In this document: piece by piece, positions 2,509 through 62,942 of the stretch
Layout: each line of letters begins with the position of its first letter
How positions within the stretch are numbered: the first letter of the stretch is position 1
Origin: an uncultured bacterium
GTDB taxonomy: Bacteria > Patescibacteriota > Minisyncoccia > Phycocordibacterales > UBA6065
Length of the DNA stretch: 64,000 bases
NCBI GenBank assembly: GCA_966243015.1
Contig: CBIMES010000002.1
Span: 117,458 to 181,457 of the forward strand
Direction of reading: 5' to 3'
Program-made: the position numbers and the translations under genes
The notes under the pieces: generated by a model
Database searches by the model: none
What the model was told of the DNA's origin: nothing
What the model saw: only the letters and a program-made list of their open reading frames with translations

Positions 2509-2637
2509 GATAACCTTCGCGATACAATGGCGCGAGAGCCCGTGACGGTTTTCGGCCGAGAGCAAACACTCGCGGGCGGCATGGCATTTATTTCACACGT
2601 TTAGACGGTATTTTTATAATCTAGTACTTTATATTTT

Positions 2638-3372
2638 ATGAGCGTAATCAAACACAAGAATCAACGAGTCGGCGTATTCATCGACGCGCAGAACCTCTAT
2701 CACAGCGCGAAGAACCTCCATCAGGGCCGAGTCAATTTCGGCGAGGTTCTCGCCACGGCAGTGGGGGAGCGACAGCTCGTCCGCGCCATCGCCTACGTCA
2801 TCACGACGGAATCGGGCGAGGAAAGCAACTTTTTCGACGCCCTCAACAAAGTGGGTATTGAAACCAAGACTAAGGACCTGCAGATTTTCTCGAGTGGATC
2901 AAAGAAGGCTGACTGGGACGTCGGTCTCGCCATCGATGCGGTAAAGCTGGCCGACAAGCTCGACGTGGTCGTGCTCGCATCGGGCGACGGCGACTTTGTG
3001 CCACTTGTCGAGTATCTCAAAATGAATGGCTGCCAGGTTGAAGTGATCACGTTCGGTAAATCCGCGTCAGGCAAGCTCAAGGAGGCCGCCGATGATTTTG
3101 TCGACCTCGACGAGAAACCCAATCTCTACGTCCTCGGACACGGGGGTAGGGGGTACGACAAGAGGCACGACGAGGCGAGAGCGCACAAGGGTCCACGCCC
3201 CAGCCAACAGGCTAGCGTCCCAACCATAGCGGGATCAATGCTTCCGCCAAAGCCAGAAAACGACCGAGCTGAGCGCACGCAGAACCGCCAGAGGCAGCAG
3301 GGAGGCCAGCGCCCAGAGCGACCAGCAAATCCACAGAATAAAATCACCAAAATCGTCAGGAAAATGAGGTAG
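2638..3372 (+). CDS. NYN/LabA-like (PIN-like) domain protein with a disordered basic C-terminus
   Basis: VGVFIDAQNLYHSAK...DVVVLASGDGDFVPLVEYLKMNGCQVEVI matches the NYN/LabA architecture. The C-terminal 80 aa are low-complexity and Arg/Gln-rich. Confidence 0.65.
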   Translation: MSVIKHKNQRVGVFIDAQNLYHSAKNLHQGRVNFGEVLATAVGERQLVRAIAYVITTESGEESNFFDALNKVGIETKTKDLQIFSSGSKKADWDVGLAIDAVKLADKLDVVVLASGDGDFVPLVEYLKMNGCQVEVITFGKSASGKLKEAADDFVDLDEKPNLYVLGHGGRGYDKRHDEARAHKGPRPSQQASVPTIAGSMLPPKPENDRAERTQNRQRQQGGQRPERPANPQNKITKIVRKMR

Positions 3373-5105: not shown

Positions 5106-5121
5106 GCAAAGCATCAATATA

Positions 5122-5149
5122 AAAGGGCGCCAGAACTGGCGCCCTTTTA
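5122..5149 (+). terminator. Rho-independent terminator
   Basis: AAAGGGCGCC-agaac-TGGCGCCCTTTT. Confidence 0.8.
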
Positions 5150-5160
5150 TATTTCCTTGA

Positions 5161-6665
5161 ATGGTCGTTTGCTATGGTTGTCTCATGCCATTCGCCCGAG
5201 TATACAGTGCCCAGAATCACGCGCTCAAGGCGCACATTATATCCGTAGAGATAGACATATCTCGTGGCCTTCACTCGTTCTCAATCGTTGGACTTCCTAA
5301 TAAGGCAGTCGAGGAATCGAGAGACAGGGTGTCAGCGGCCATAAAGAACTCCGGATTTAAGTCACCCAAACAAACGCAAAGGTGACCGTTTCGCTTGCGC
5401 CGGCAAATCTCCGGAAAGAGGGCCCCGTGTTTGACTTACCCATCGCCATTGCCTATCTCTTGGCATCCGAACACCTCTCGTGCGATCCAGAGGGGAAGAT
5501 ATTCGTTGGCGAGCTCTCGCTCGATGGAAAGATAAGGCCGGTTCGAGGTATTTTCTCAATAGCAGAGATGGCCGCACGGAAGGGGGTAAGGGAAATATAC
5601 GTGGCCAAAGAGAATGCTGGCGATGCGGCAACGATCAAGGGACCCCTAGTGTTTGGATTCGAAACACTCGACGAGCTCATTTCACACCTATCGGGTACAA
5701 AGATGATCAAGCCCGCAAGGCTGTCTCAACGAGCAACAGCGGAGATGCCTTACAGCGTCACGCTCGATGACATAGCAGGCAATAATAGCGCCAAAAGAGG
5801 ACTCATCATTGCCGTCGCGGGAATGCACCCAATCGCGTTCTTTGGACCTCCGGGTACAGGCAAAAGCATGCTCGCCAAAGCCTCACAAAGCATATTGCCC
5901 GATTTAACGACCAAGGAGAGCCTCGAGGTCTCTGGTATCCACGCGGTGTCGGGACGCTTCCACTCCGGACTCATCACCAGGCCACCATTCAGATCTCCTC
6001 ACCACACGTCATCGCACACATCTATTATAGGTAGTGGTTCACCTCCGCTCCCAGGGGAGATGACGTTAGCACACAGGGGAATCCTCTTCCTCGACGAATT
6101 CCTGGAATTCGACAGGAGAACTATCGAATGCCTCAGGCAGCCACTCGAGGACAAGCGTGTCTGCATATCGCGAGCGAAGGGCGGGGCAGTTTTTCCCGCT
6201 GATTTCATGCTCATCGCCGCATTCAATCCATGCCTGTGCGGCAACAGGGGATCAAGGACGGCAAAATGCACATGCACTGCAAGCGACAGAAATCGATACG
6301 ATAGAAAACTCTCGGGCCCCATAATCGACAGAATAGACCTGTGGGTTGAGGTAGCGGAGGTGGATTACGAGGCACTCATGATTCCTGTCCCCTCAGGACA
6401 CGAAACCTTCCAGGCGAAGACACTCGTCGAGAAAGCAAGAAAGGCAAGGGAAAAAAGAGTGGCGCGAGGCGGCGAGCCCGACAGAGCAGGCATATCCGAC
6501 AAAGGGAGGGAGACGCTTCTGGCCTACGCAAAAGCAGGGAATATCTCAGCAAGGTCGCATAAAAACATCCTCCGCGTGGCGAGGACCATCGCAGATATCG
6601 AGGGGAGCGAAAACGTAGAAGCGCCCCATATTCTTGAGGCGCTTCAGTATAGAAAAAGAGAGTAG
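5161..6665 (+). pseudogene. comM: ComM/YifB-family Mg-chelatase-like AAA+ ATPase, interrupted by a frameshift near 5377-5385
   Basis: The N-terminal ComM domain (…SVEIDISRGLHSFSIVGLPNKAVEESRDRVSAAIKNSGF...) is in frame 1 and ends at a TGA at 5383-5385. The remaining roughly 427 aa (…VTVSLAPANLRKEG…, Walker A FFGPPGTGKSMLA, C-terminal Mg-chelatase domain) continue in another frame from 5382. Restoring a single A in the caaagg run gives a continuous protein. Confidence 0.8.
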
Positions 6666-9863: not shown

Positions 9864-10658
9864 ATGCTATTCGCAAAGAAATCGCTCGGCCAGAACTTCC
9901 TGATATCACCCGGCATCATCGACAGAATCGTCGAGGCAGGGGAGATACGCCAGGGTGAGACCGTCATCGAGATCGGCCCAGGAAAGGGTGCGCTCACCGC
10001 GGCGCTTCTTCGTGCCGGCGCACACGTAAAAGCAATCGAGAAGGATGATCGACTCATCCCCGTACTCGACCAGACCTTCGCGTCCGAAAAGGCAAGTGGC
10101 GCCTTCGAGCTCTTCCATGACGACGTCATGGAAATTACCCCTGAAAAGCTCGCCGCCCACGTCTCGGGAAACTACAAGCTCATCGCGAACATCCCTTATT
10201 ACATCACCGGTCAAATCATCAGGCTCTTCCTCTCGCTTCCGCAGAAGCCCGAGAACATGGTACTCATGGTTCAGAAGGAAGTCGCGAACCGCATCATCGC
10301 CCGAGACGAGAAGGAGAGCATCCTGTCTCTTTCCGTGAAAGCGTACGCGAAACCCGAGCTCGTCGTGAACGTCGCCCGTGGAAACTTCTTTCCGATACCA
10401 AACGTAGACTCGGCGGTCATTAAGCTCAGCGAGATACGAAACCCCTTTGCGAACCCAGCCGAGGAAGAGAGATTTTTCGAAGTCGTGAAGGCGGGCTTCG
10501 CACAAAAGAGGAAGAAGCTCGCGCGAAACCTCGAGAGCGCCGCGCCCGCCGAGGCAATCTCCGGGGCGTTTGCGGAGCTGGGCCTCGACGACAACGCACG
10601 TGCCGAGGACGTGTCGCTGAATCAGTGGATCGCGCTCGCGCAGAAACTAACGCAGTAG
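9864..10658 (+). CDS. rsmA: 16S rRNA (adenine1518/1519-N6)-dimethyltransferase RsmA/KsgA
   Basis: KSLGQNFL near the N-terminus, SAM-binding IEIGPGKGALT, and NIPYYIT. Confidence 0.9.
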   Translation: MLFAKKSLGQNFLISPGIIDRIVEAGEIRQGETVIEIGPGKGALTAALLRAGAHVKAIEKDDRLIPVLDQTFASEKASGAFELFHDDVMEITPEKLAAHVSGNYKLIANIPYYITGQIIRLFLSLPQKPENMVLMVQKEVANRIIARDEKESILSLSVKAYAKPELVVNVARGNFFPIPNVDSAVIKLSEIRNPFANPAEEERFFEVVKAGFAQKRKKLARNLESAAPAEAISGAFAELGLDDNARAEDVSLNQWIALAQKLTQ

Positions 10659-10664
10659 AATGAA

Positions 10665-10698
10665 AACAAAATCACCGCCTCGGGGCGGTGATTTTTTC
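10665..10698. terminator. Bidirectional hairpin terminator between rsmA and the convergent downstream gene
   Basis: AAAATCACCGCC-tcgg-GGCGGTGATTTT with T-rich flanks on both strands. Confidence 0.7.
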
Positions 10699-10701
10699 GA
10701 G

Positions 10702-11094
10702 TTACTTACCTCCGGGCAATCCCGTACCGACGAACCCCATCACGCCAAGCGAGGGAAGGGGAACGCAGGCGATACCGACGTAAATCCAACACGCCTGAAC
10801 GCCAGGGATATACGCACCATCATGGGGCACGGAAGGAATCGAGGGAAGAAAATTGGCAAAAGGAACAGTCGCATAGGGCACATATACGAGTGGCCCTGTT
10901 GCGATAACGGGGCCTCCGAGATAAAGAGGCGCAAACCAAGCCCAAATAGAAGCACTGCAGATGCAGGGAAAGATAAAAACGGGCCAGCCACCAAAGGGAA
11001 GCATGGGGGGAACGAGCGCATCGGCCTTCTGAACAGGAAAGAACAGCACGGCGAGGAGACAGAGGGAGACGGCGATTGCGGCGAGCTTCTTCAT
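10702..11094 (-). CDS. Hypothetical small secreted/hydrophobic Pro/Gly-rich protein
   Basis: The N-terminal signal peptide MKKLAAIAVSLCLLAVLFFPVQKADA is followed by a hydrophobic Pro/Gly/Val-rich sequence. No family is recognisable. Confidence 0.4.
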   Translation of the reverse strand: MKKLAAIAVSLCLLAVLFFPVQKADALVPPMLPFGGWPVFIFPCICSASIWAWFAPLYLGGPVIATGPLVYVPYATVPFANFLPSIPSVPHDGAYIPGVQACWIYVGIACVPLPSLGVMGFVGTGLPGGK

Positions 11095-17951: not shown

Positions 17952-18611
17952 ATGGACAAAGAACTTCAAACCCGATTTGATTCGCTCCCTGCCGACATAC
18001 AGACGGCGCTTCAGTCGACTGACATCATCGAGAAACTCCAGGCCATCGGAAGAGCCCATGATCTGCACACCGATCAGCTTGGGGGACTGGAAGCATGTGT
18101 GAGCAGAATCATGCTCGGCATAGATAAGACCGATGATTTTGTCGAGAGCATTGAAAACAACCTTAATGTAACGACGGATGATGCCATAAACATAGCGACG
18201 GAGGTAAACACGACCATATTCCTCCCCGTCAGGGAATCCCTCATGAAAATGCAGGCCGCTGGAACAGAAACCCCCGCAATAAGCAACGAACCGACCGTCG
18301 ACGAACACCCCATGAAAGCGGACATCCTCGCCGAGATAGAGGATCCGAAGCCGGTGGCTCAGCCTATATCGTCGATACGACCCGCACCAACCCCCGCAAC
18401 CCCCGTAAACACAGCACTCCCGACAATTGAACCGTCACATCTTCCAACCACCGCATCTCAGCCGAAACCGACCCCGACATTCCAGACTCCGGCACCAAAA
18501 CCCCAGAGCTCCAGTGTCACCAACGAGTTCATAGCGGGGAAGATGACCGAGACCGTGAATATGCCGCCTCAGAAATACAGCGCAGACCCTTACAGGGAAC
18601 CGCTCAACTAG
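17952..18611 (+). CDS. Hypothetical soluble protein with a Pro/Thr-rich C-terminal half (locus member)
   Basis: The start is 3 nt after the upstream stop, suggesting translational coupling. No TM helix. PAPTPATP… proline-rich tail. Confidence 0.45.
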   Translation: MDKELQTRFDSLPADIQTALQSTDIIEKLQAIGRAHDLHTDQLGGLEACVSRIMLGIDKTDDFVESIENNLNVTTDDAINIATEVNTTIFLPVRESLMKMQAAGTETPAISNEPTVDEHPMKADILAEIEDPKPVAQPISSIRPAPTPATPVNTALPTIEPSHLPTTASQPKPTPTFQTPAPKPQSSSVTNEFIAGKMTETVNMPPQKYSADPYREPLN

Positions 18612-18619
18612 GCGAAAAT

Positions 18620-18651
18620 AAAAGGCTCAGTCCACTGAGCCTTTTATTTTT
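18620..18651 (+). terminator. Rho-independent terminator with an adjacent TATAAT -10 element
   Basis: AAAGGCTCAG-tccac-TGAGCCTTTT-ATTTTTG followed by TGTGTATAAT at 18651-18660. Confidence 0.7.
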
Positions 18652-18666
18652 GTGTATAATGAACTC

Positions 18667-19130: not shown

Positions 19131-19766
19131 ATGGCGCTTAACGCGAAGACAACACAGGAGTTCGTTCCGATAAAGGAAATCCGACAGGGAATCGTCATCC
19201 TCCGCGACGACTCTCTGCGAGGCGTCGTCATGGCGTCATCGCTCAACTTCGCCCTCAAATCGGCCGACGAGCAGCAGTCAATCATCTTTCAATTCCAGAA
19301 CTTCATCAACTCGCTCGACTTCTCGGTGCAGATCTTTATCCAGTCTCGTAAGCTCGACATCAGGCCATACATCGCCCTTCTCGAGAACAGGCTTCGCGAG
19401 CAGATGAGCGATCTCCTCAAGATCCAGACGCGCGAGTACATCGAGTTCGTGAAGAACTTCACCGAGAACTCGAACATCATGACAAAGACCTTCTTCATCG
19501 TCGTACCGTACAGCCCGACGGTCGTCTCGAAGGGAAGCGTGCCGAACCCGCTCGGCAAGAAGAAGACGGGGGAGGAGACCGCCGAGCGAAGACTCGAGCT
19601 CTTCGAGGAGCATCGCAGCCAGCTCGAGCAGCGTATCAGCGTCGTCACCCAAGGTCTTAGCCGCTGCGGAATCCGCAGCGTCGAGCTGGGAACGGAGGAG
19701 ATCGTCGAGCTCTTCTACAAGATCTTCAATCCGGGCGACACCGAGAAGCCTATACCTCTCAACTAA
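19131..19766 (+). CDS. VirB4/TrbE/PrgJ-like ATPase, N-terminal domain fragment (211 aa)
   Basis: TQEFVPIKEIRQGIVILRDDSLRGVVMASSLNFALKSADEQQSIIFQFQNFINSLDFSVQIFIQSRKLDI is the characteristic N-terminus of Gram-positive-type VirB4 proteins. It ends at TAA 19764-19766, 4 nt before the next ATG. Confidence 0.7.
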   Translation: MALNAKTTQEFVPIKEIRQGIVILRDDSLRGVVMASSLNFALKSADEQQSIIFQFQNFINSLDFSVQIFIQSRKLDIRPYIALLENRLREQMSDLLKIQTREYIEFVKNFTENSNIMTKTFFIVVPYSPTVVSKGSVPNPLGKKKTGEETAERRLELFEEHRSQLEQRISVVTQGLSRCGIRSVELGTEEIVELFYKIFNPGDTEKPIPLN

Positions 19767-23827: not shown

Positions 23828-25060
23828 ATGTCGAAAAAAACATTCACGCTCTTCATCATAGTACTCCTGGGAATCATCGCCTTCCTCGGCTGGTTCTTTT
23901 TCTTCCGCGCGAATGAGTCAACGCTTCCCGGTGACCCCAACCAGCCGACCGACCTCTTTCCCTTTGGGCAGGGGAGCACAACCCCTGATGGAAACAACAC
24001 GGGGCAAACGGGCAGCTCGACGGGGCAGATAGACATCTCGGGTGACACCCCACGCCTTCCTCGACTAAGACAAATCTGGCGAGACCAGACCGCAGGCGCC
24101 ACGTTCTTTCCAGGCACGGGAACCACGACAAGCGTGAGGTTCGTCGACAGAGCAACGGGTCACATCTACGAGTCTCCTATCGAGGCGACGGGGGAGACCA
24201 AGATATCGAACGTCACCATCCCACAGGTGCACGAAGCGCTTTGGGCATCAAACGGAAACGAGCTCATCTTCCGCTACCTCAGGAGCGATTCGATGACGAT
24301 ACAGTCGTTCTATGGAACGCTCGCCACATCGAGCGCCACTACAACCATGACGGTGGAAGGTTACTTCTTGCCCGCAAACATCCGCGACATCTCGGTATCA
24401 GGCGACAGGATTCTCTATTTCAACCCAGCCGTTCAGATCGGAAGCCTCGTCGACGCACGCGTCGACGGCACAGGAAGACGCGTGGTCATGAGCTCCGAGG
24501 CACGAGACTGGTCTCTCTCATACACCAACACAAAAACCGCATTCCTCGAAACCAGGCCAAGCGGTCTCGTAAAGGGATTCGGCTACGCCCTTAACCTCGC
24601 CACGGGAGCGACTTCAAAAATAGCTGGTGACATACTCGGTCTCACCGGAACCATAAACCCAGCAGGGGACAGAGCGCTTATGTCAGCGCAGGAGGGCGGA
24701 AGCATCGTCACGGCAGGCTACGACATGACGTCAAAGAGGGCCTCCACCCTTTCCATCAAAACCCTTTCCGACAAATGCGTGTGGAGCAGGAAAAAGGCCG
24801 AGATGGCATACTGCGCAGTGCCCTCAAACATTCCGTCGGGAACATATCCTGATGACTGGTATCGAGGCGACACGAGCTTCTCCGATCGACTCTGGACCGT
24901 CGACCTCTCGACAGGGGAGACCGATCTCATCATGGACCCATCCTATGAGACCGGCCAGAGCATGGACATCATGAAAATCAGCGTGGACAGCGGGGAGGAG
25001 TACATTACATTCACCAACAAGAAGGACATGAGCCAGTGGCTGCTGAGGATCGAGGAATAA
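23828..25060 (+). CDS. Hypothetical N-terminally anchored extracytoplasmic beta-rich protein (last locus gene)
   Basis: TM helix FTLFIIVLLGIIAFLGWFFFF, then a Gly/Thr-rich linker and a roughly 330-aa domain. A bidirectional terminator follows. Confidence 0.45.
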   Translation: MSKKTFTLFIIVLLGIIAFLGWFFFFRANESTLPGDPNQPTDLFPFGQGSTTPDGNNTGQTGSSTGQIDISGDTPRLPRLRQIWRDQTAGATFFPGTGTTTSVRFVDRATGHIYESPIEATGETKISNVTIPQVHEALWASNGNELIFRYLRSDSMTIQSFYGTLATSSATTTMTVEGYFLPANIRDISVSGDRILYFNPAVQIGSLVDARVDGTGRRVVMSSEARDWSLSYTNTKTAFLETRPSGLVKGFGYALNLATGATSKIAGDILGLTGTINPAGDRALMSAQEGGSIVTAGYDMTSKRASTLSIKTLSDKCVWSRKKAEMAYCAVPSNIPSGTYPDDWYRGDTSFSDRLWTVDLSTGETDLIMDPSYETGQSMDIMKISVDSGEEYITFTNKKDMSQWLLRIEE

Positions 25061-25073
25061 GAAAGCCCCAAAA

Positions 25074-25105
25074 GAAAGCCGCATCGATCGATGCGGCTTT
25101 CTTTT
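25074..25105. terminator. Bidirectional terminator between the T4SS-like locus and yidC
   Basis: AAAGCCGCATCG-atcg-ATGCGGCTTTCTTTTTC, with a T-run on the opposite strand as well. Confidence 0.75.
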
Positions 25106-25106
25106 T

Positions 25107-25862
25107 CTATCTAACCTTCACCGCCAAATTCTCCTTCGCCTCCTTCTCCCGCGCCATCTGCCGTCGGATGTACAGCTCCTGCCCGATCATGAACAGGTTG
25201 CTCGTCACCCAGTACAGGGCGAGGGCCGAGGCCACGTGGTAGGCGATGAAGAGGATCATGATAGGGAAGACGTACTTCATCTGAGTCTGCATGTTGCGGG
25301 CGAAGTCCTCCTGGAAGTTGCCGTTGCCGGTCTTGGGGGCAGCCTTTGGTATCGAGAGCCTTATCTGGAAGTACTGGGAGACCGCCGCGAGAACCGCGAG
25401 AGCGAAGCTTTTGGTACCCATGTCTATGAGACCAAGGAAGTTCATGTTAACAACCTCAGGAACCTTAACGAACGAGTAGAGGAGACTCGGGTCAGGCGCC
25501 GAAATGCCTGACGAATAAAAGATTCGATACAAGGCGAAGAAGATAGGAAGCTGGAGAAGGATAAGGAAGATGCCGGCAAACGGGTTTATGCCCTTTGCCT
25601 TGTAGAAGGCCATGACCTGAAGCGCCTGCGCCTGCCGATCGTCCTTGTACTTCTCCTTGATGGCATTCATCTCGGGCTCGTACATCTTGAGGGCAACCTG
25701 GGTGCGGGCAGACTTTCTCGAAAGAGGGAAGAGGATGACCTTAACGATAACCGTGAAGAGGATAATGACGACGCCTGCGTCGAGGAAGGGGAGGTGGCCG
25801 GCGAGGAATACAAGACCGTTATAGAGGGGCTCGTAGATGAACGTAGTATAAAGATAATGCAT
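25107..25862 (-). CDS. yidC: Membrane protein insertase YidC/Oxa1 (short form)
   Basis: 251 aa and multi-TM. Its position downstream of rnpA and rpmH is the conserved rpmH-rnpA-yidC arrangement. Hydrophobic core motifs are typical of the 60-kDa IMP family. Confidence 0.8.
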   Translation of the reverse strand: MHYLYTTFIYEPLYNGLVFLAGHLPFLDAGVVIILFTVIVKVILFPLSRKSARTQVALKMYEPEMNAIKEKYKDDRQAQALQVMAFYKAKGINPFAGIFLILLQLPIFFALYRIFYSSGISAPDPSLLYSFVKVPEVVNMNFLGLIDMGTKSFALAVLAAVSQYFQIRLSIPKAAPKTGNGNFQEDFARNMQTQMKYVFPIMILFIAYHVASALALYWVTSNLFMIGQELYIRRQMAREKEAKENLAVKVR

Positions 25863-29222: not shown

Positions 29223-29474
29223 ATGTTCAACGTCGCCGACTATTTCAAGAAGTTCGCGAAAATAGAGGGTGAGAGCCTCGCCTTGAGAGATTCGATACGG
29301 GTGGCGCTGCTTGAGGTGTGCGGGGTGGGGAAGGCTGATTTTGAGGTTAAGAAAGGTGTTTTGATTATGAAGGGTCACCCTGTCATCAAGTCGATGGTGT
29401 TCATGAAAAAGAAAGAGGTTCTCGAGCATCTCTCGAGAACCTCTCCTCAGTCCAGGATTTCCGATATCCGCTAG
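29223..29474 (+). CDS. Small protein, possibly DUF721/DciA-like (putative helicase-loader family)
   Basis: 83 aa, immediately after dnaN. The C-terminal …GVLIMKGHPVIKSMVFMKKKEVLEHLSRTSPQSRISDIR resembles the DUF721 pattern (…vL.v.v.s…eL.f.k.eil.rLn…v.dIr). The call rests on pattern and position only. Confidence 0.35.
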   Translation: MFNVADYFKKFAKIEGESLALRDSIRVALLEVCGVGKADFEVKKGVLIMKGHPVIKSMVFMKKKEVLEHLSRTSPQSRISDIR

Positions 29475-33351: not shown

Positions 33352-33618
33352 CTACCAGCTCTCTTCCTCGTCTACGAGGAAGTCGTTGACTGGGTCATCG
33401 CTCTCCTCGCTGCCCTCGCCGTCTTCGTCGAGCGAGTCGTCGTCGAAGTCAGAGTCGCTGTCCTCGTCCGCGGTCTCGTCGTCATCGCTCGCGACCTTCT
33501 TTGGGCTCGGATCATCGTCACCCTCTTCCTCGTCGGTTTCCTCTTCCTCGTTCTGTGCAGCGATGGGCTTCTTTACCTCTTCCGCGTCTTCTTTTCGTGC
33601 GATTTTCTTGCTTGGCAT
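33352..33618 (-). CDS. Extremely acidic small protein (about 45% Asp/Glu), function unknown
   Basis: The 88-aa ORF MPSKKIARKEDAEEVKKP… continues into D/E/S-rich sequence ending …DDPVNDFLVDEEESW. Codon usage matches neighbouring genes. No strong SD. Confidence 0.45.
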   Translation of the reverse strand: MPSKKIARKEDAEEVKKPIAAQNEEEETDEEEGDDDPSPKKVASDDDETADEDSDSDFDDDSLDEDGEGSEESDDPVNDFLVDEEESW

Positions 33619-33689
33619 TTCCTTTGAAATTTAGAGTCCTCTATTTTTAGCAGATGTAGTTTTTTGACGCAATATGTGGATAAGTACAT

Positions 33690-33790
33690 GTACCGAGACC
33701 GTCGGAAAAAGCACGGATATTCGCCTGCTGGCGAATTCCTCGAGCTCGCGCCGGTCGCGCTCGCTAGTCTTTTTCCGACGGTCTCGGTAC
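33690..33790. repeat. Long perfect hairpin (22-bp stem) holding a 57-nt conserved loop element. This is copy 1 of a dispersed repeat, with a perfect DnaA box just upstream.
   Basis: GTACCGAGACCGTCGGAAAAAG … CTTTTTCCGACGGTCTCGGTAC, with loop cacggatattcgcctgctggcgaattcctcgagctcgcgccggtcgcgctcgctagt. TGTGGATAA lies at 33675-33683. The loop recurs about 89% identical at 61430-61486. Confidence 0.7.
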
Positions 33791-33807
33791 TCGGCGGTGA
33801 TAGAAAA

Positions 33808-34284
33808 TTAGAAGCGTTCAATCGCGAAGCAGGTGAGACCTACGGCGATGGCGTCATACTCGTCGTCGTGCCGTATGTCCTTGTCGATTTTTATGAGGCG
33901 GGAAACCATGGCGATGACCTGTTCCTTGTCGCTCGCGCCATAGCCCGTGACGGCGACCTTGATTTGTCCGGGGCCGTACTCGTAGACGGGAAGCCTGTTT
34001 GTGGCGGCCTGGTAGAGAATGACGCCTCGGGCCTCGGCGACGGTGATGGCGCTCTTCTTGTTGCTGCTGAAGAAGAGGTTCTCGAGGCAGAGTGCCTGGG
34101 GCGCGTATTCGCCGATGATGCGGGCGATTTCCGCGCCGATGAGCCCGAGGCGTTCGTGATGGGGGAGCTTGGCCGAGGTCTTGAAGCAGTCTGAATACAC
34201 AAGCGTCTCCTTCTGGCGGGGGAGCTTCTCGATGACGGCGATGCCGAGGCGTTCGTATCCGGGATCGATGGCGATGATGCGCAT
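33808..34284 (-). CDS. ruvC: Crossover junction endodeoxyribonuclease RuvC
   Basis: MRIIAIDPGYERLGIAVIE… RNase H-like fold motifs and …DEYDAIAVGLTC… carry the catalytic acidic residues. 158 aa. Confidence 0.9.
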   Translation of the reverse strand: MRIIAIDPGYERLGIAVIEKLPRQKETLVYSDCFKTSAKLPHHERLGLIGAEIARIIGEYAPQALCLENLFFSSNKKSAITVAEARGVILYQAATNRLPVYEYGPGQIKVAVTGYGASDKEQVIAMVSRLIKIDKDIRHDDEYDAIAVGLTCFAIERF

Positions 34285-41563: not shown

Positions 41564-42283
41564 ATGCTGTATCTCATTCACGGAACTGATATCGAAACCG
41601 CTCGCGCCAAGGCCCGCGCGCTCTTTGAGGCGCTCAGGCAGAAGAAGCCAGACGCGTCTGCGGGGACCCTGTCGGCCGAGCAGGTGACATTCGAGCGCCT
41701 CGACGAGCTTACCCAGACGCAGGGCCTCTTCGAGAACAGGCAGATTATTTTCATGGACCGCACGCTCGAGAATAAGGACATGCGTGACGTCGTCCTCGAG
41801 CGCATCGACGCCCTTGCCGAGTCGCCGAACATATTCATATTCTCGGAGGGCAAACTCACCAAAGAGGTTCTCAAGAAATTCGAGAAGCGCGCCGAGAAGG
41901 TACAGGAATACGAGGCAAAAGAGGCGTCCAAGGCAAAGCAGGACGGCGGTTTCTTCGCTCTCGCTGACGCTCTCGGCTCTCGCGACAAGAAGAGCCTCTG
42001 GGTACTCTTCAGGGACGCGATGGACAAGGGCGCCGCGCCAGAAGAAATTCACGGTATTCTCTTCTGGCAGGCGAAGTCTCTTGCGCTCGCCGAGCGAACG
42101 CGCGACGCGGCCGAGGCGGGACTCAATCCGTTCGTGTATGGGAAGGCGAAGAGGCACTCTTCAAACTTCAGGGAAGGCGAAGTTGACTCGCTCGTGTCTC
42201 GGCTCGTCCATCTGTATCATCGGGCGCATCGCGGTCAGGAGGATTTCGAGGTGTCGCTCGAGAAGCTGATTCTCGATCTCTAG
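41564..42283 (+). CDS. holA: DNA polymerase III delta subunit-like protein (HolA family, short)
   Basis: N-terminus MLYLIHGTDIETA… and overall helical clamp-loader-delta-like pattern (…ILFWQAKSLALA…). It lies immediately downstream of polA. Assigned by pattern only. Confidence 0.45.
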   Translation: MLYLIHGTDIETARAKARALFEALRQKKPDASAGTLSAEQVTFERLDELTQTQGLFENRQIIFMDRTLENKDMRDVVLERIDALAESPNIFIFSEGKLTKEVLKKFEKRAEKVQEYEAKEASKAKQDGGFFALADALGSRDKKSLWVLFRDAMDKGAAPEEIHGILFWQAKSLALAERTRDAAEAGLNPFVYGKAKRHSSNFREGEVDSLVSRLVHLYHRAHRGQEDFEVSLEKLILDL

Positions 42284-42291
42284 GATAAAAA

Positions 42292-42325
42292 AGTCCCCGC
42301 TGGAAAGGCGGGGACTTTTGTTTGC
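42292..42325 (+). terminator. Rho-independent terminator
   Basis: AGTCCCCGC-tggaaag-GCGGGGACT-TTTGTTT. Confidence 0.75.
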
Positions 42326-42329
42326 CGTT

Positions 42330-42722
42330 TTATGCGGCGGCCTCTTCGTCATCCGGCATGACCACGGCGGGCCGGGGGCGATGGGTGGGGAATTCGAATT
42401 GCTTCAGAATTTCCTCGGGAAGATTCGCGCGGACGTATTCCATTGAAACCGAGAACAGGAAGTGCTCGCCTCGCTCGCTGTGGTGGCTGACGTTTGCCGC
42501 CTCGGCCGCGTAGAAACTCAACCCTCCACTGATGAATGACTCCTGATGGCCCCGCCTGCTTGTCTCAGGTATGCCGCTTATGGCGGATACCGGAATCCTG
42601 ATCCATTCGGGGTCGTTGAAGCGACTGATGACGAGCTCTGTCGCCCCTTCGGGTATTGGCTTGATCATGGCTGATGTGTTCCAAGGAACTCGCGATATGC
42701 CCTCGCGTAAGGCTGTGCGCAA
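42330..42722 (-). CDS. Hypothetical protein
   Basis: 130-aa ORF. An alternative start at MIKPIPEG is possible. No family is recognisable. Confidence 0.35.
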   Translation of the reverse strand: MRTALREGISRVPWNTSAMIKPIPEGATELVISRFNDPEWIRIPVSAISGIPETSRRGHQESFISGGLSFYAAEAANVSHHSERGEHFLFSVSMEYVRANLPEEILKQFEFPTHRPRPAVVMPDDEEAAA

Positions 42723-42893: not shown

Positions 42894-43367
42894 ATGAAGC
42901 GCGACGTCAGGATCCTCCTTCACGACATTCGCAGCGTCCATAATGTCGCAGCGATATTCCGTACCGCGGACGCAATCGGCGCGACCAAGATATACCTGGG
43001 TGGATACAGTCCGGCGCCCGTGGATCGTTTCGGGAACGCACGCGCTGATTTTTCGAAGGCCGCTCTTGGCTCCGAGAACACGGTTTCATGGGAGGCAATT
43101 AAAAACCCGATAACCCTCATTGCCAAGCTCAAAGGCGAGGGGTTTTCTGTCGTGTCTGTCGAGCAGGATGCTCGATCTGTCGATTACAAAAAGACGAAAC
43201 CCGGCCCGAGGGCCCTCATCGTCTTCGGTAACGAAGTGACCGGTGTTTCGAAGAAAGTCCTTGCCGTCTCTGATACTGTCGCCGAGATACCCATGCGTGG
43301 CTTGAAGGAGTCCCTGAACGTATCGGTTTCGGCCGGAATCGTTCTGTATAGGTGGTTCGACAAGTAA
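42894..43367 (+). CDS. SpoU/TrmH-family tRNA/rRNA 2'-O-methyltransferase
   Basis: …HNVAAIFRTADAIGA… and C-terminal …LIVFGNEVTGVS…IPM.G..ESLNVSVSAGIVLY are the SPOUT class motifs. Start taken at MKRDVRIL. Confidence 0.8.
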   Translation: MKRDVRILLHDIRSVHNVAAIFRTADAIGATKIYLGGYSPAPVDRFGNARADFSKAALGSENTVSWEAIKNPITLIAKLKGEGFSVVSVEQDARSVDYKKTKPGPRALIVFGNEVTGVSKKVLAVSDTVAEIPMRGLKESLNVSVSAGIVLYRWFDK

Positions 43368-43397
43368 AAGCCCTCGGATACCGAGGGCTTTTACTTA
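43367..43397. terminator. Bidirectional terminator
   Basis: AAAGCCCTCG-gatac-CGAGGGCTTTT. Confidence 0.7.
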
Positions 43398-44363
43398 GAA
43401 GGTTATTGCGTCGAGAACCTCTCCCTTGGCGTCACGGAGCCTGATGATCTCCTGGCGGCTCCTCCAGAGCTCCTTGGTCTCCTCGAGGAAAAGTCTCCAC
43501 TCGTTCTTCAGGAACCCCCTTTCTTTCTGGTGCGCATAGACACAGCTGTTGTAGTTAAGCGTCTCGGCCACGAACGCTTTGCACGTTGGCGATATGTCAC
43601 TTGGAAGCGTTTCTTCGTATGTGCGGCAGCGGGGAATGGTCTCCACGAATTTTCGACACGACTCCTCTTCGTATGGCCCTGACGCCTTGAGCTCGTCGAG
43701 GGGCTCGGGGCAGTCCTTCCTGAGATCAGGCGTGTACGACTGGAACTGGTCGAGATATCCGCTGCAGATGTTTACTCGGAATGATGTGCCGACGGGGGAG
43801 CGGCCCGAGGTGATGAGGACGCGACCCTCTGCCGGAACGGATACTGCGGTTTTGAGGTAAGGGGTACCGAGCACGAGAAGGTCGGCAGCCGTCGGGATGC
43901 TCTTGATGATGTCGCGCGCATCGCCCGTGATAGTCATGCCCTCGAGTGACAAAGGGGCTTTTGCGGACGACTCGGCGATAATGCGGAGATACTCGTCCTG
44001 GGGCGAGGTTGCTGCCGCACCTGCGATTCCGTCGATGCGGAGCTCGCCTGATCCTCTGGTGACGGGGTGGATTTCCTTGGCCGTGCGTGGCTGCGAGAAA
44101 AAGCTGATGATGCTCGCGCTTATGGTGCGCGCGACCCTGGCGGGCGCCTCGGGGAGGTTGAGGGTTTCCTGCCTCTCTGGGTCGCCGCCAAAATAGGTTC
44201 GCCCATAGGTATCGCCGCTGTCGATAGGGGCGAGTGGCTTTATGTATGGTTGGCGGGCGTCAGGGTCGCTTGCCCCTCCGGTGAGGAACCAGATGAGGCC
44301 AATGCCGACGAGTCCCCAGATGAGCCAGGCGAACTCTTTGTGTAGTCCTTTGAGTATATCCAT
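43395..44363 (-). CDS. Hypothetical N-terminally anchored extracytoplasmic protein (Cys-containing C-terminal region)
   Basis: TM helix FAWLIWGLVGIGLIWFL. 322 aa. Several Cys in the C-terminal third may form disulfides. Confidence 0.45.
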   Translation of the reverse strand: MDILKGLHKEFAWLIWGLVGIGLIWFLTGGASDPDARQPYIKPLAPIDSGDTYGRTYFGGDPERQETLNLPEAPARVARTISASIISFFSQPRTAKEIHPVTRGSGELRIDGIAGAAATSPQDEYLRIIAESSAKAPLSLEGMTITGDARDIIKSIPTAADLLVLGTPYLKTAVSVPAEGRVLITSGRSPVGTSFRVNICSGYLDQFQSYTPDLRKDCPEPLDELKASGPYEEESCRKFVETIPRCRTYEETLPSDISPTCKAFVAETLNYNSCVYAHQKERGFLKNEWRLFLEETKELWRSRQEIIRLRDAKGEVLDAITF

Positions 44364-48502: not shown

Positions 48503-48766
48503 ATGCCAATCACATCTTCAGCAAAAAAGGCCCTTCGATCGTCAAAGCGCAAGCGCGTGTACAACGTACGCCGACGCGACGCGGTCTCTGAGGTCACCAA
48601 GCAGATCAAGAAGCTCGCCGTCTCAGGCAAGAAGGCCGAGGCAAACAAGCTCCTCGCCCAGGCCTACAAGCAGCTCGACAAGTCAGCGAAGGCCGGCTTC
48701 ATCAAGAAGAACACCGCCGCTCGAAACAAGTCGCGACTCTCTGCCCTCATCAAGAAGGTAAAGTAA
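48503..48766 (+). CDS. rpsT: 30S ribosomal protein S20
   Basis: MPITSSAKKALRSSKRKRVYNVRRR… is the S20 signature. 87 aa. Terminator at 48774-48805. Confidence 0.9.
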   Translation: MPITSSAKKALRSSKRKRVYNVRRRDAVSEVTKQIKKLAVSGKKAEANKLLAQAYKQLDKSAKAGFIKKNTAARNKSRLSALIKKVK

Positions 48767-48773
48767 TCAAAAG

Positions 48774-48805
48774 AAAAACCGCCCTGCAGGGCGGTTTTTC
48801 TTTTT
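48774..48805 (+). terminator. Rho-independent terminator after rpsT
   Basis: AAACCGCCC-tgca-GGGCGGTTTTTCTTTTT. Confidence 0.8.
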
Positions 48806-48846
48806 CCTCGTTTACTTTTCCTGAATTTCCTGTAAGTTAATAGCAC

Positions 48847-52785: not shown

Positions 52786-52872
52786 GCGCGGATGGCGAAA
52801 TTGGCAGACGCACTACCTTGAGGTGGTAGCGCCCTCACGGGCATGGAGGTTCAAGTCCTCTTCCGCGCACCA
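52786..52872 (+). tRNA. tRNA-Leu (anticodon GAG), class II, CCA encoded
   Basis: Acceptor GCGCGGA/TCCGCGC, anticodon stem CTACC/GGTAG with loop TTGAGGT, long variable arm, T-arm GGAGG-TTCAAGT-CCTCT, ACCA. Confidence 0.9.
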
Positions 52873-52922
52873 GGAGAACGACGGACGGATGATCCGTCCG
52901 TCGTTTTTCTAAAGAAAAAGAT

Positions 52923-52994
52923 GGTGCCTATAGTTTAGTGGTAAAACGCTGGATTGTGGTCCCGGTGTCGAGGGTTCGATTCCCTCTAGGCACC
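52923..52994 (+). tRNA. tRNA-His (anticodon GTG) with encoded G-1 pairing with C73
   Basis: G-GTGCCTA…anticodon loop TTGTGGT…T-arm GAGGG-TTCGATT-CCCTC, then TAGGCAC-C. The 8-bp acceptor with G-1:C73 is the bacterial tRNA-His hallmark. Confidence 0.85.
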
Positions 52995-60630: not shown

Positions 60631-61407
60631 ATGGAAAACACTCAGGTAAGGAAGGTTGCCCTGACGCTCGGCGCGGTCCTCATCGCCCTCGTTGCGGTTA
60701 AGATCGTGAGCGAGCTCAAGGCTATGCCGTACATCGGCAAGAGTGAGAACATCGCGAACGTTATCACCGTCTCGGGCAAGGGTGAGGTTCTCGCGACCCC
60801 TGACATCGCGACCTTCTCGTTCAGCGTGACCGAGGAGGCGGCGACTGTTGGCGAGGCTCAGTCGAAGGCGACCGAGAAGGCGAACGGTATTATCGCTTAT
60901 GTTAAGGATGCTGGCGTCGAGGACAAGGACATCAAGACTTCCTCGTACAACATCTACCCTCGATACGAGTATCGAAACGCGACCATCTACACCTCGGGAA
61001 CCCGATATCTCGCGGCATACGTAGTGTCTCAGTCGGTTGAGGTCAAGGTTCGCAACATCGAGAAGGCGGGTGAGATTCTCTCGGGCATCGGCGAGTTTGG
61101 CGCTGACAACGTGTCTGGCCTCTCGTTCTCGATCGACGAGCAGGACGCCCTCGCGCGAGACGCCCGCGAGCAGGCAATCAAGGACGCCCGCGAGCAGGCC
61201 AAGACTCTCGCGAAGGCCCTCGGCGTCAGCCTCGGCCGCATCACGAGCTTCTACGAGTCAGCCCCTTATCAGCCATACCCAATGTACTACGCAAAGGACA
61301 TGGTTATGAACGCATCAGGATCGGCTCGACCAGAGGCCGCCCCAGAGCTTCCTGCCGGCGAGAACAAGATCATCTCGAACGTCACTATCACGTACGAAAT
61401 AAAATAG
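60631..61407 (+). CDS. SIMPL-domain (DUF541) periplasmic/outer-surface protein
   Basis: N-terminal anchor. …ITVSGKGEV..PDIA.FSF.V…A..A…N… and C-terminal …G..E..…KI.SNVTITYEI match SIMPL / 26-kDa periplasmic immunogenic protein family proteins. Confidence 0.75.
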   Translation: MENTQVRKVALTLGAVLIALVAVKIVSELKAMPYIGKSENIANVITVSGKGEVLATPDIATFSFSVTEEAATVGEAQSKATEKANGIIAYVKDAGVEDKDIKTSSYNIYPRYEYRNATIYTSGTRYLAAYVVSQSVEVKVRNIEKAGEILSGIGEFGADNVSGLSFSIDEQDALARDAREQAIKDAREQAKTLAKALGVSLGRITSFYESAPYQPYPMYYAKDMVMNASGSARPEAAPELPAGENKIISNVTITYEIK

Positions 61408-61413
61408 TCGCTC

Positions 61414-61501
61414 GTGAGTTCCCGAAGGGCACGGATATTTTCCTGGTGGAAAATTCCTCGAGCTCGCGCCAGTCGCGCTCGCTAGTCCCTTCAGAAATCA
61501 C
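61414..61501. repeat. Copy 2 of the dispersed hairpin-embedded 57-nt element
   Basis: The loop cacggatattttcctggtggaaaattcctcgagctcgcgccagtcgcgctcgctagt is about 89% identical to 33712-33768. It is flanked by an imperfect inverted repeat GTGAGTTCCCGAAGGG…CCCTTCAGAAATCAC. Base changes in the stem keep the pairing (GAAAAAG/CTTTTTC versus GAAGGG/CCCTTC). Confidence 0.7.
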
Positions 61502-61530
61502 TCGCTCCTCATTGGAAGACAAAGACAGCC

Positions 61531-61556
61531 TTAACAGGCTGTTTTTGCTTGTCTGG
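61531..61556 (+). terminator. Rho-independent terminator
   Basis: ACAGCCT-taac-AGGCTGT-TTTTGCTTG. Confidence 0.65.
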
Positions 61557-62416: not shown

Positions 62417-62839
62417 ATGGCAAAGAAAATTACAAAGCAGCTTAAGCTTCAGATCCCGGGCGGCAAGGCCGTTCCAGGACAGGCTCTCGGACCAGCGCTC
62501 GGTTCGGCCGGTATCAACATCGGTGAGTTCGTGAAGCGCTTCAACGACGAGACCAAGACCCGCGTAGGCGAGATCGTCCCTACCATCATTGAGGTCTACG
62601 ACGACCGAAGCTACAAGCTCATCTACAAGACTGAGCCCGCATCGAAGATGATCCTCAAGGTTCTCGGAAAGGAGAGCGGATCAGGCAAGCCAAACTCAGT
62701 GAAGGTTGGCACCATCACCAAGGCTCAGGTCAAGGCGATCGCCGAGAAAAAGCTCGCTGACCTCAACACCGACGACGTGAACGCGGCCATGAAGATGGTC
62801 GAGGGCACCGCTCGAAACATGGGTGTCGACGTTAAGTAA
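62417..62839 (+). CDS. rplK: 50S ribosomal protein L11
   Basis: MAKKITKQLKLQIPGGKA…PGQALGPALGSAGINIGEFVKRFN… is the L11 signature. 140 aa. Confidence 0.95.
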   Translation: MAKKITKQLKLQIPGGKAVPGQALGPALGSAGINIGEFVKRFNDETKTRVGEIVPTIIEVYDDRSYKLIYKTEPASKMILKVLGKESGSGKPNSVKVGTITKAQVKAIAEKKLADLNTDDVNAAMKMVEGTARNMGVDVK

Positions 62840-62851
62840 AACATCTCTCAA

Positions 62852-62884
62852 GAAAAGCCTCCCGAAAGGGAGGCTTTTCTTTTG
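62852..62884 (+). terminator. Rho-independent terminator after rplK
   Basis: AAAAGCCTCCC-gaaa-GGGAGGCTTTT-CTTTTG. Confidence 0.8.
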
Positions 62885-62942
62885 TGGGGAAGAGGAGTCT
62901 TTACTTTGCGCGTTCGTGGGTATACTCTGGGACGCAAACACC

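Follow-up and report, generated by a model that had tools for sequence, protein, structure and literature searches.

In this study, we describe a family of folded repeats of about 100-135 bases that is found across the Patescibacteria, is absent from Rfam and was previously uncatalogued. Two copies lie in a stretch of 64,000 nucleotides from an uncultured bacterium of this group (contig CBIMES010000002.1, positions 117,458 to 181,457 of the forward strand), which is called the window hereafter; loci outside the window are designated by L numbers. The center of the element is a highly conserved core that folds into a three-way junction, in which two short hairpins, P2 and P3, are placed atop a long closing stem, P1. 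Whole copies have multiplied within a genome, and close relatives differ in the presence or absence of the element at the same site. We consider that the family may represent a mobile or recently mobile structured repeat, similar to repetitive extragenic palindromic (REP) sequences and miniature inverted-repeat transposable elements (MITEs), and that its core may dock a putative trans-acting factor. Judged from the sequences, we regard this explanation as having an even chance of being correct.

The secondary structure was derived from 114 distinct copies aligned together with their flanks (alignment A1). P2 has the form GGAUAUUNNCC-UGCU-GGNNAAUUCC with one bulged U, and P3 has the form AGC-UC-GCGC-C(R)GUC-GCGC-UC-GCU, in which helices of 3 bp and 4 bp are separated by a symmetric UC/UC internal loop and capped by a loop of 4-5 nt. 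Over P1, P2 and P3, standard pairs occupied 90.2% of 4218 cells, compared with 40-54% when the partners were slid by 1-3 columns, and the covariation score was 0.59, compared with 0.11-0.18 in the slid controls. None of 500 shuffles attained the observed values of pairing or covariation, and RNAalifold independently found the same three helices. In P2, 99.6% of the cells were paired, and both sides had changed in 6 of the 10 pairs through exchanges among U-A, A-U, C-G and G-C. In P3, 98.1% of the cells were paired, with exchanges at all four inner pairs, and in P1 the proportion was 82.7%, with every position variable. G.U pairs occurred in 2 of 1140 cells of P2, and P2 and P3 had hardly any wobble pairs of either polarity. 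Pyrimidine-pyrimidine oppositions filled 227 of 228 cells in the UC/UC loop of P3, and both this loop and the C(A)GUC loop were nearly invariant. The P3 module, which comprises the 4-bp helix, the C(A)GUC loop and the UC/UC loop (GA/GA in a CGAG context on the other strand), is the most conserved part of the element. A consensus structure with compensatory changes is what characterizes a structured RNA, and a DNA hairpin would show the same pattern.

A wider search with a covariance model (R1) recovered divergent members that had been missed by sequence patterns. In these members, the architecture is retained together with YAC at the 5' junction, AG at the 3' junction, the C(A)GUC loop and the 5' UC of the internal loop, and the outer helix of P3 (P3a) covaries among them as AGC/GCU, UGU/ACA, UGC/GCA and CUC/GAG. 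In addition, a sister subfamily of the form GGUCAC...P2...CGACCCCNCC-UC-NNNN-CGUC-NNNN-UC-CGG was observed, which has only the P3b module and the overall architecture in common with the main family. Its copies are located as follows.

L014, 6178-6301; L016, 1247-1361; L018, 8251-8374: sister-subfamily copies
L029, 7524-7648; L112, 9728-9851; L119, 14074-14196: sister-subfamily copies

One further copy (L003, 243-446) contains about 85 extra bases with additional hairpins between P2 and P3, while both P1 and P3 are preserved; this copy represents a branched variant or, alternatively, the product of a secondary insertion.

The two copies in the window, referred to as site 1 and site 2, have the following features.

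33690..33711, plus strand: P1 5' arm of site 1, GTACCGAGACCGTCGGAAAAAG, the perfect 22-bp complement of 33769-33790, paired in the minimum free energy (MFE) folds of both strands
33712..33768, plus strand: conserved 57-nt core of site 1, forming the three-way junction (R1 score 114 bits over 33680-33800)
33715..33739, plus strand: hairpin P2 of site 1, GGAUAUUCGCC-UGCU-GGCGAAUUCC, with one bulged U, supported by pairing and covariation across the 114 copies
33743..33765, plus strand: hairpin P3 of site 1, AGC-UC-GCGC-CGGUC-GCGC-UC-GCU, with the symmetric UC/UC internal loop, supported in the same way
33769..33790, plus strand: P1 3' arm of site 1, the inverted repeat of 33690-33711
61408..61414, plus strand: 5' base motif of site 2, TCGCTCG, beginning one base past the TAG stop codon (61405-61407) of the SIMPL gene
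61414..61429, plus strand: P1 5' arm of site 2, GTGAGTTCCCGAAGGG, differing from its ortholog in L067 by changes that are matched in the opposite arm
61430..61486, plus strand: conserved 57-nt core of site 2 (R1 score 97 bits over 61400-61515)
61433..61457, plus strand: hairpin P2 of site 2, GGAUAUUUUCC-UGGU-GGAAAAUUCC, with two compensatory pair swaps relative to site 1
61461..61483, plus strand: hairpin P3 of site 2, AGC-UC-GCGC-CAGUC-GCGC-UC-GCU, a covariation-supported helix
61487..61501, plus strand: P1 3' arm of site 2, CCCTTCAGAAATCAC, an imperfect 15-16-bp repeat with 61414-61429
61501..61506, plus strand: 3' base motif of site 2, CTCGCT, which together with 61410-61414 repeats the P3 module (GC-UC-G / C-UC-GC)
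61525..61547, plus strand: intrinsic terminator hairpin with T-run, outside the element and 3' of site 2, kept in relatives with and without the element

An initial annotation of this DNA had described a 57-nt loop sequence of equal length and about 89% identity at these two sites, enclosed by a perfect 22-bp inverted repeat at site 1 and an imperfect one of roughly 16 bp at site 2, in gene-end intergenic regions downstream of ruvC and upstream of secE. On re-examination, all of its statements at the sequence level hold, including both inverted repeats and the placement. The two cores differ at 6 of 57 positions, corresponding to 89.5% identity. Four of these differences constitute two fully compensatory swaps in P2 (C-G/G-C to U-A/U-A), and the remaining two are located in the loops of P2 and P3, one in each. 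The location and length of the proposed loop are correct as well; it is not an unstructured loop, as P2 and P3 make it a three-way junction. The annotation had further taken the covariation of the stem as an argument for a functional hairpin. The covariation is real, but it is not sufficient as the sole proof of function, since palindromes can co-evolve by template switching. A stronger argument for function is that the core was kept while P1 drifted at orthologous loci, as described below.

A 34-base core pattern occurred exactly twice in the window and in none of 100 shuffles, and a covariance-model scan of the entire window with filters off returned these two copies only. Site 1 was predicted to fold with -65.2 kcal/mol on the plus strand and -67.7 kcal/mol on the minus strand (z = -8.2 and -9.3 relative to shuffles), and site 2 with -36.5 and -49.0 kcal/mol, respectively (z = -2.5 and -5.4). 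Chance similarity is excluded as the origin of the two hairpins. Site 1 is located between the stop codon of ruvC (33808, minus strand) and the start of an acidic 88-aa open reading frame (ORF; 33618, minus strand). Site 2 directly follows the SIMPL/DUF541 gene and is followed by the terminator at 61525-61547 and then by secE-nusG-rplK.

The family was enumerated by scanning genomes with the exact pattern, using one genome per species, and metagenomes with a looser pattern. The genome scan yielded 15 loci in at least nine metagenome-assembled genomes (MAGs), with six of these loci coming from a single MAG, and the metagenome scan yielded 116 loci. Groundwater and lake samples (Hainich H41/H43/H51 contigs, Ga0194054 and Ga0209542) contributed many of the copies. 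All hosts with a taxon name were Patescibacteria, Saccharibacteria or Paceibacterota. The names borne by the homologs of RuvC and SIMPL place the organism of the window as a relative of the Paceibacterota. The combined scans gave 135 matches, three of which looked random, leaving 132 plausible copies with 99 distinct cores that stem from independent assemblies and sources. These numbers bear out the suggestion in the initial annotation of a small dispersed REP/MITE-like or protein-binding family. That annotation had also named a small RNA (sRNA) as an option; the element family stands, whereas an independent sRNA gene does not, because the element is transcribed within mRNAs. It had considered, moreover, that further copies and conservation in relatives might be lacking or that the copies might belong to a larger duplicated segment. 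Both window sites have orthologous copies in relatives, and the copies lie outside any larger duplication because their flanks are unrelated, the neighboring proteins falling into 167 clusters. In terms of position among relatives, the sites were found to be filled, reduced to a remnant or without the element.

In the scan of the window at the gathering thresholds of Rfam 15, a collection that covers hammerhead, twister, twister-sister, pistol, hatchet, 6S, SRP and Y RNA, seven tRNAs and nothing else were recognized, and a permissive scan of 33600-33850 (E <= 10, both strands) gave no match. In the literature on repeats, MITEs, structured RNAs and Rho in the Patescibacteria, also known as the candidate phyla radiation (CPR), we found no description of the element. 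Two known classes were compared with it and rejected. On the one hand, the hammerhead ribozyme core was compared by eye (CUAGCGA...GA versus CUGANGA...GAAA); the junction strands of the element are too short, and G5 and A6 are swapped. On the other hand, the TIGR-Tas or box C/D-like arrays of CPR bacteria are tandem arrays adjoining a Tas gene (PMC12045711), whereas the element occurs as dispersed single hairpins.

The outer stem was examined in order to define the full extent of the element. In the main subfamily, P1 comprises about 18 bp, and a single pairing register is held to position 18. Beyond P1, many copies echo the P3 module, with GCUCG on the 5' side and CUCGC on the 3' side (GC, UC/UC, G-C). 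Among 111 copies, CTCG was found 5' of the core at about -21 (range 17-28 nt) in 41, at about +19 in 37, and on both flanks in 31, where it also belongs to the base module of the fold. A different arrangement is seen in other copies, whose outer helix AAAACUC/GAGUUUU contains an internal loop, and the A-tract at -27 to -32 pairs with a T-tract at +28 to +31. We considered whether this A-tract merely reflects stop codons and rejected this explanation; the tract is equally strong without a gene end upstream and therefore belongs to the outer stem. The full element measures about 100-135 nt, and its conserved foot nucleotides are CAC...CUAG and CUCG. An origin in which the core was inserted into the loops of older terminator hairpins was also rejected for the main subfamily, in view of the P1 register fixed to position 18, the conserved motif beyond P1, and the element-free site 1 of L134 and L135, where there is no hairpin.

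In terms of gene context, the element is characteristic of gene boundaries. The neighboring proteins, 193 in number before clustering, include recurring families of housekeeping function only. In about 50 copies, the stop codon of a same-sense upstream gene precedes the core by 21-41 nt, most often by 27-28 nt, compared with nine copies in the opposite sense. Between tandem genes, 26 copies are in sense and 6 in antisense orientation, and among the 61 contexts that were classified, 20 are convergent pairs. In four genomes (L081, L105, L126 and L131), the element is found behind rpsG, and other copies are positioned inside operons, between rplJ and rplL (L062), between groES and groEL (L066), and between an S21-like gene and ybeY (L022). 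In the copies within operons, 8-15 nt separate the base of the stem from the next start codon. A promoter would not fit into this space, and RNA polymerase must therefore read through the element in the plus sense, indicating that the element is part of the mRNA and not an efficient terminator. Consistently, neither window element was called in the terminator scan, and no T-run follows P1 on either strand, so that the element lacks the hallmark of an intrinsic terminator.

Three other explanations were tried and set aside. An independent antisense sRNA gene was considered, as the opposite strand shows a weak enrichment of -10-like hexamers 70-85 nt upstream; at site 2, the terminator leaves no room for such a promoter. 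Orientation set by replication was considered for three copies near dnaA/dnaN, which showed no consistent relation to the fork in a sample that is too small. A structured Rho-loading site presenting unpaired YC dinucleotides does not fit an RNA that is mostly double-stranded; the rho gene was not found in the 1.1 Mb of locus sequence, which is uninformative in this respect.

Ordinary terminators of the window genome were also observed in these searches. Bidirectional terminators composed of an A-tract, a G+C hairpin and a T-tract matched R1 weakly via P1 at 48759-48814, 25060-25115, 5106-5163, 18602-18663, 43347-43411, 62836-62895, 10655-10708, 42275-42333 and 52858-52924, and these are ordinary gene ends. 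The hairpin after the gene of a penicillin-binding protein (29395-29463) is a plain terminator in which each arm carries CTCGAG, and at the same gene end L135 (14767-14888) and L136 (9117-9238) carry a diverged three-way-junction element. Similarly, L135 has a divergent element after yidC (19157-19278), where the window genome has a plain bidirectional terminator.

Multiplication of whole copies was seen in the MAG CAZFHL01, which carries near-identical full-length copies, outer arms included, at different loci. Two of its loci, L001 and L005, contain three model hits each within 3-8 kb, and L001, L005 and L020 each contain at least three hits within 3-13 kb, corresponding to a high-copy repeat located at gene ends. 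In L004 (5375-5600, or 5390-5580 in a narrower delimitation), a complete 131-nt element is located inside the P2 region of a truncated older copy that has lost P3 and the 3' arm. In L009, two elements of different subfamilies (2576-2698, plus strand, and 2790-2910, minus strand) are arranged head to head, 90 nt apart.

The two window sites differ in occupancy among relatives. At site 1, all independently assembled strains with identical RuvC (L137-L142) carry the element, L132 and L133 (RuvC 84%) have a diverged copy that agrees with it in place and orientation, and L134 (RuvC 92%) and L135/L136 (83%) are without it. At site 2, an orthologous copy is present in L067, and the full element is absent from L143 (SIMPL 90%), L144 (80%) and L145 (72%). 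After the SIMPL stop codon, L143 retains TCGCTCG-CGCCGTCGCG-CTCG (10118-10142), in which the P3 module is fused to the base motif; this remnant equals the window sequence minus exactly two segments, each lying between CTCG motifs. In alignment A2, L144 retains TCGTTCG and the first 9 nt of the P1 5' arm, and L145 retains TCG only. These remnants suggest that the element was probably ancestral at site 2 and was lost three times, with CTCG as break points. The loss in relatives demonstrates that the element is dispensable at single loci.

Comparison of orthologous sites also showed how unevenly the element evolves. Between the window and L067 at site 2, the DNA of the flanking genes is 75-82% identical and the P1 5' arm is about half identical (manual count of the aligned arms), with its changes matched on the other arm; the core shows one compensatory pair and loop changes only. 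Furthermore, the carriers of the family are deeply diverged (EF-Tu 74-88%, EF-G 74-83% and S7 60-73% identical), and their cores are nearly the same. Gene conversion within a genome cannot explain the identity of cores between genomes, and something must read the core sequence.

Considering these properties, we propose the following mechanism for a mobile or recently mobile repeat. A self-folding element would constitute a compact insertion, in which the upstream stop codon stays beside the next start codon or terminator, and we infer that it may be tolerated at cistron boundaries for this reason. Since the core is conserved far beyond its surroundings, a conserved trans-acting factor would have to read it. 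This putative factor would most likely be a protein for copying or moving the element, with the P3 module as its recognition site on single-stranded nucleic acid. As a side effect that is not essential, the RNA fold may protect 3' ends or influence the stability of mRNA segments, as in REP sequences. A more specific proposal is less likely than not: the junction could be a phylum-wide, sequence-specific ligand of a conserved, undescribed factor of the Patescibacteria, acting at cistron boundaries as a novel signal for bacterial mRNA 'punctuation' or processing, or serving as the substrate of a novel system for hairpin-directed mobilization of single-stranded DNA (ssDNA) at CTCG.

Several results weigh against a mobile repeat. 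Neither pattern matched any viral contig, so that no vector is apparent. No target-site duplication is evident at the ends of the copies, no transposase or recombinase was found near any copy, and no transposase-like family recurs among the 808 ORFs of the loci. A tblastn search with IS200/IS608 TnpA queries gave nothing below E = 0.3 in 1.1 Mb, which is a small sample of about 100 genomes. An RNA selected by the host would account more readily than a selfish repeat for the occupation of the rpsG-fusA spacer in four deeply diverged genomes and for a core that is conserved between orthologous loci. Moreover, in 108 of 114 copies the more stable fold is that of the strand complementary to the usual mRNA sense, with a mean difference of 6.3 kcal/mol; the MFE fold of this strand recovers the covariation-supported P3 in 82%, compared with 63% for the mRNA strand, and its internal loops are tandem G.A mismatches in a CGAG context. 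Such mismatches in this context are a stable motif in both RNA and DNA. In P1, pyrimidine-pyrimidine mismatches exceed purine-purine mismatches by about 2:1 (cluster-weighted, p ~1e-5), which is robust, and A.C exceeds G.U by about 1.6:1 (cluster-weighted, p = 0.002-0.04), which is fragile. Assignment of the strand from the raw counts of A.C and G.U mismatches was discarded; their 3:1 ratio is inflated by related copies, and the bias vanishes with one representative per loose cluster (40 versus 36). The strand bias is independent of the direction of the flanking gene, as judged from seven antisense cases only. Thus, the transcribed strand is not the one that forms the structure best, and the RNA-level part of our explanation does not predict this asymmetry. 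It is possible that the functional fold is ssDNA (or RNA) of the other strand, and it is also possible that insertions are tolerated mainly when the mRNA bears the weaker, pyrimidine-looped version.

The main rival to a mobile repeat is a host signal, which we consider unlikely on balance while taking it seriously. Here, the element would be cis-acting RNA 'punctuation' in 3' untranslated regions and intercistronic spacers, where a conserved host protein or RNase binds the core of the plus-sense junction, with effects on 3'-end protection of the upstream mRNA, on polycistronic processing or on the coupling of termination to re-initiation through stop and start codons kept close to each other; copy changes would be ordinary duplication and loss. 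The strong sense-orientation bias and the tight spacing to stop codons agree with such a signal, as do the location in highly expressed operons that need unequal cistron output (rplJ-rplL, groES-groEL and rpsG-fusA), the core kept at orthologous loci across deep divergence, the fixed length of P1 in the main subfamily with its register to position 18, and the three copies behind three successive genes in L005. However, of the two strands, the one in the mRNA sense forms the less stable fold, containing UC/UC loops and mismatches that involve C, and the near absence of G.U pairs from P2 is unusual for RNA under structural selection. The element was also lost in three of five relatives at site 2 and two of four at site 1 with no visible replacement, and its density is uneven, with two copies per 64 kb in the window compared with several per 3-13 kb in L001, L005 and L020. 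In addition, the near-identical whole copies and the copy within a truncated copy resemble transposition.

Other explanations are less likely than a host RNA signal. An orientation-dependent terminator or insulator, in which the strong strand (CUAGCGAG...GUG, tandem G.A) halts polymerases that enter the 3' end of the upstream gene in antisense and the weak strand lets sense polymerases pass, would account for the better fold of the opposite strand in 108 of 114 copies, for the A-rich tract at -27 to -32, which is a U-tract on that strand, for the share of convergent pairs, and for the divergent copy of L135 located after yidC, where the window has a plain bidirectional terminator. We consider it improbable, because the A-tract is paired with the T-tract in the outer stem and is not a free tail, no U-run follows either window copy on either strand, and bidirectional terminators of the canonical kind are already in use in this genome, including one immediately past site 2; the high-copy MAG has outer arms that are U-rich on the 5' side and A-rich on the 3' side, which is the reverse of a terminator. 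An mRNA-hosted small stable RNA is a shade more improbable still. In that case, RNase III would cut the P1 stalk and free the junction of about 60 nt as a trans-acting RNA, as in rRNA or snoRNA-like precursors. A long, near-perfect and sequence-free P1 below a highly conserved core, in a multi-copy family within transcribed spacers, would suit this processing, but the loops of the transcribed strand are pyrimidine-rich, which is atypical of stable functional RNAs, the copy number ranges from few to probably more than 100 per genome, and single copies are dispensable. Finally, chance similarity, an assembly artefact or a larger duplicated segment has almost no probability as an explanation of the family; shuffles of the window never contained the pattern, the copies, numbering more than 130, were drawn from independent assemblies and sources, their flanks are unrelated, and the same locus is filled in the independently assembled strains L137-L142.

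Some neighboring features of the window were recorded as well. The ORF after ruvC (33352-33618, minus strand, 88 aa) is extremely acidic, being rich in D and E, and has no Pfam hit on record; it is kept in relatives with a length of 82 or 78 aa (L132, 10674-10922; L135, 10594-10830). A perfect DnaA box, TTATCCACA, is located at 33675-33683 on the minus strand, 6 nt beyond the element of site 1 and upstream of the acidic ORF, about 6 kb from dnaN/dnaA. Its position is conserved in relatives with and without the element (L132, 10598-10606; TTATCCCCA in L134 and TTTTCCACA in L135). The seven tRNA genes of the window lie between 42815 and 52994, with five of them clustered at 51.8-53.0 kb on both strands.

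The Patescibacteria represent a very large share of bacterial diversity, and most of them are uncultivated; their genomes are tiny, and few regulatory RNAs or mobile elements are known from them. The family described here is abundant in some of these genomes, and its core is more conserved than the genes of EF-Tu or ribosomal proteins. If the element is mobile, it would be a rare case of a repeat that colonizes gene boundaries, including those in essential operons, in streamlined genomes, and it would point to a mobilizing enzyme. Should it be a host RNA signal, it would reveal the way in which CPR bacteria organize the ends of mRNAs and the expression of operons. In either case, model R1 and alignment A1 can serve as an annotation tool for CPR genomes, and the element is usable as a marker of strain variation.

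In comparison with known systems, the element shares with the REP sequences and mosaic elements (BIMEs) of Enterobacteria and Pseudomonas, which are associated with RAYT, the nature of high-copy extragenic palindromes at gene 3' ends or between cistrons, the co-transcribed hairpins, the lack of a target-site duplication and a fold that is asymmetric between strands. REP sequences protect upstream mRNA, as in malE-malF. However, REP units are simple imperfect hairpins of 20-40 nt with a conserved GTAG/CTAC tetranucleotide, and any one set of them is confined to a single genus or family; moreover, no RAYT-like gene was recovered in the 1.1 Mb searched here. The present element lacks both this size and this foot; it is 100-135 nt long, has a branched conserved core on a sequence-free stem, and is common to genomes whose EF-Tu is about 75% identical. 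Like ERIC/IRU, Correia (NEMIS), BOX, RUP and bcr1, it is non-coding, transcribed intergenic DNA (about 100-160 bp in that group) that forms long RNA hairpins and varies in presence between strains, and some members of that group have orientation-dependent effects on mRNA. Those repeats have conserved terminal inverted repeats, usually with TA or short duplications, and their whole sequence is conserved per species group, whereas the element has a variable outer stem and a conserved center, shows no duplication and spans a superphylum. Accordingly, it resembles MITEs in being small and non-coding, with near-identical copies in one genome and presence/absence polymorphism, but not in conserved terminal inverted repeats and target duplication, as its outer arms differ between genomes. 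Like the mycobacterial interspersed repetitive units (MIRUs), it occupies intercistronic operon spacers in one orientation and abuts the flanking stop and start codons, but MIRUs are tandem direct repeats with small ORFs and have no hairpin with a junction core.

With regard to systems that recombine folded single strands, the element is similar to integron attC sites in being an imperfect palindrome right after a stop codon, in a fixed orientation and with unpaired features in the stem, and in the better folding of the strand complementary to the coding one, which is the recombinogenic strand in attC. On the other hand, attC sites keep the base of the stem (R''/R', GTTRRRY) and vary at the tip, and the element does the reverse; attC sites form arrays beside intI after cassette genes, while the element is dispersed in single copies behind rpsG, groES, rplJ, ruvC and yidC, and its base is GCUCG/CUCGC instead of RYYYAAC/GTTRRRY. 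The derivatives of the IS200/IS605 family (PATEs), which are moved by HUH/Y1 single-strand transposases, likewise show no target duplication, strand-specific hairpins and a flanking tetranucleotide (CTCG in our case), and the remnant of L143, with the exact loss of two inter-CTCG segments, is in line with them. PATEs have two similar subterminal hairpins at separate ends, whereas the element forms one long hairpin whose tip is branched, and the search for TnpA in 1.1 Mb gave no hit. In summary, the element is closest in behavior to repeats of the REP, ERIC and Correia type while failing the defining features of REP sequences, MITEs, attC sites and terminators, and it is distinguished from them by an inverted conservation, with a variable stem and a conserved branched tip, by its reach across a superphylum and by its transcription-biased orientation.

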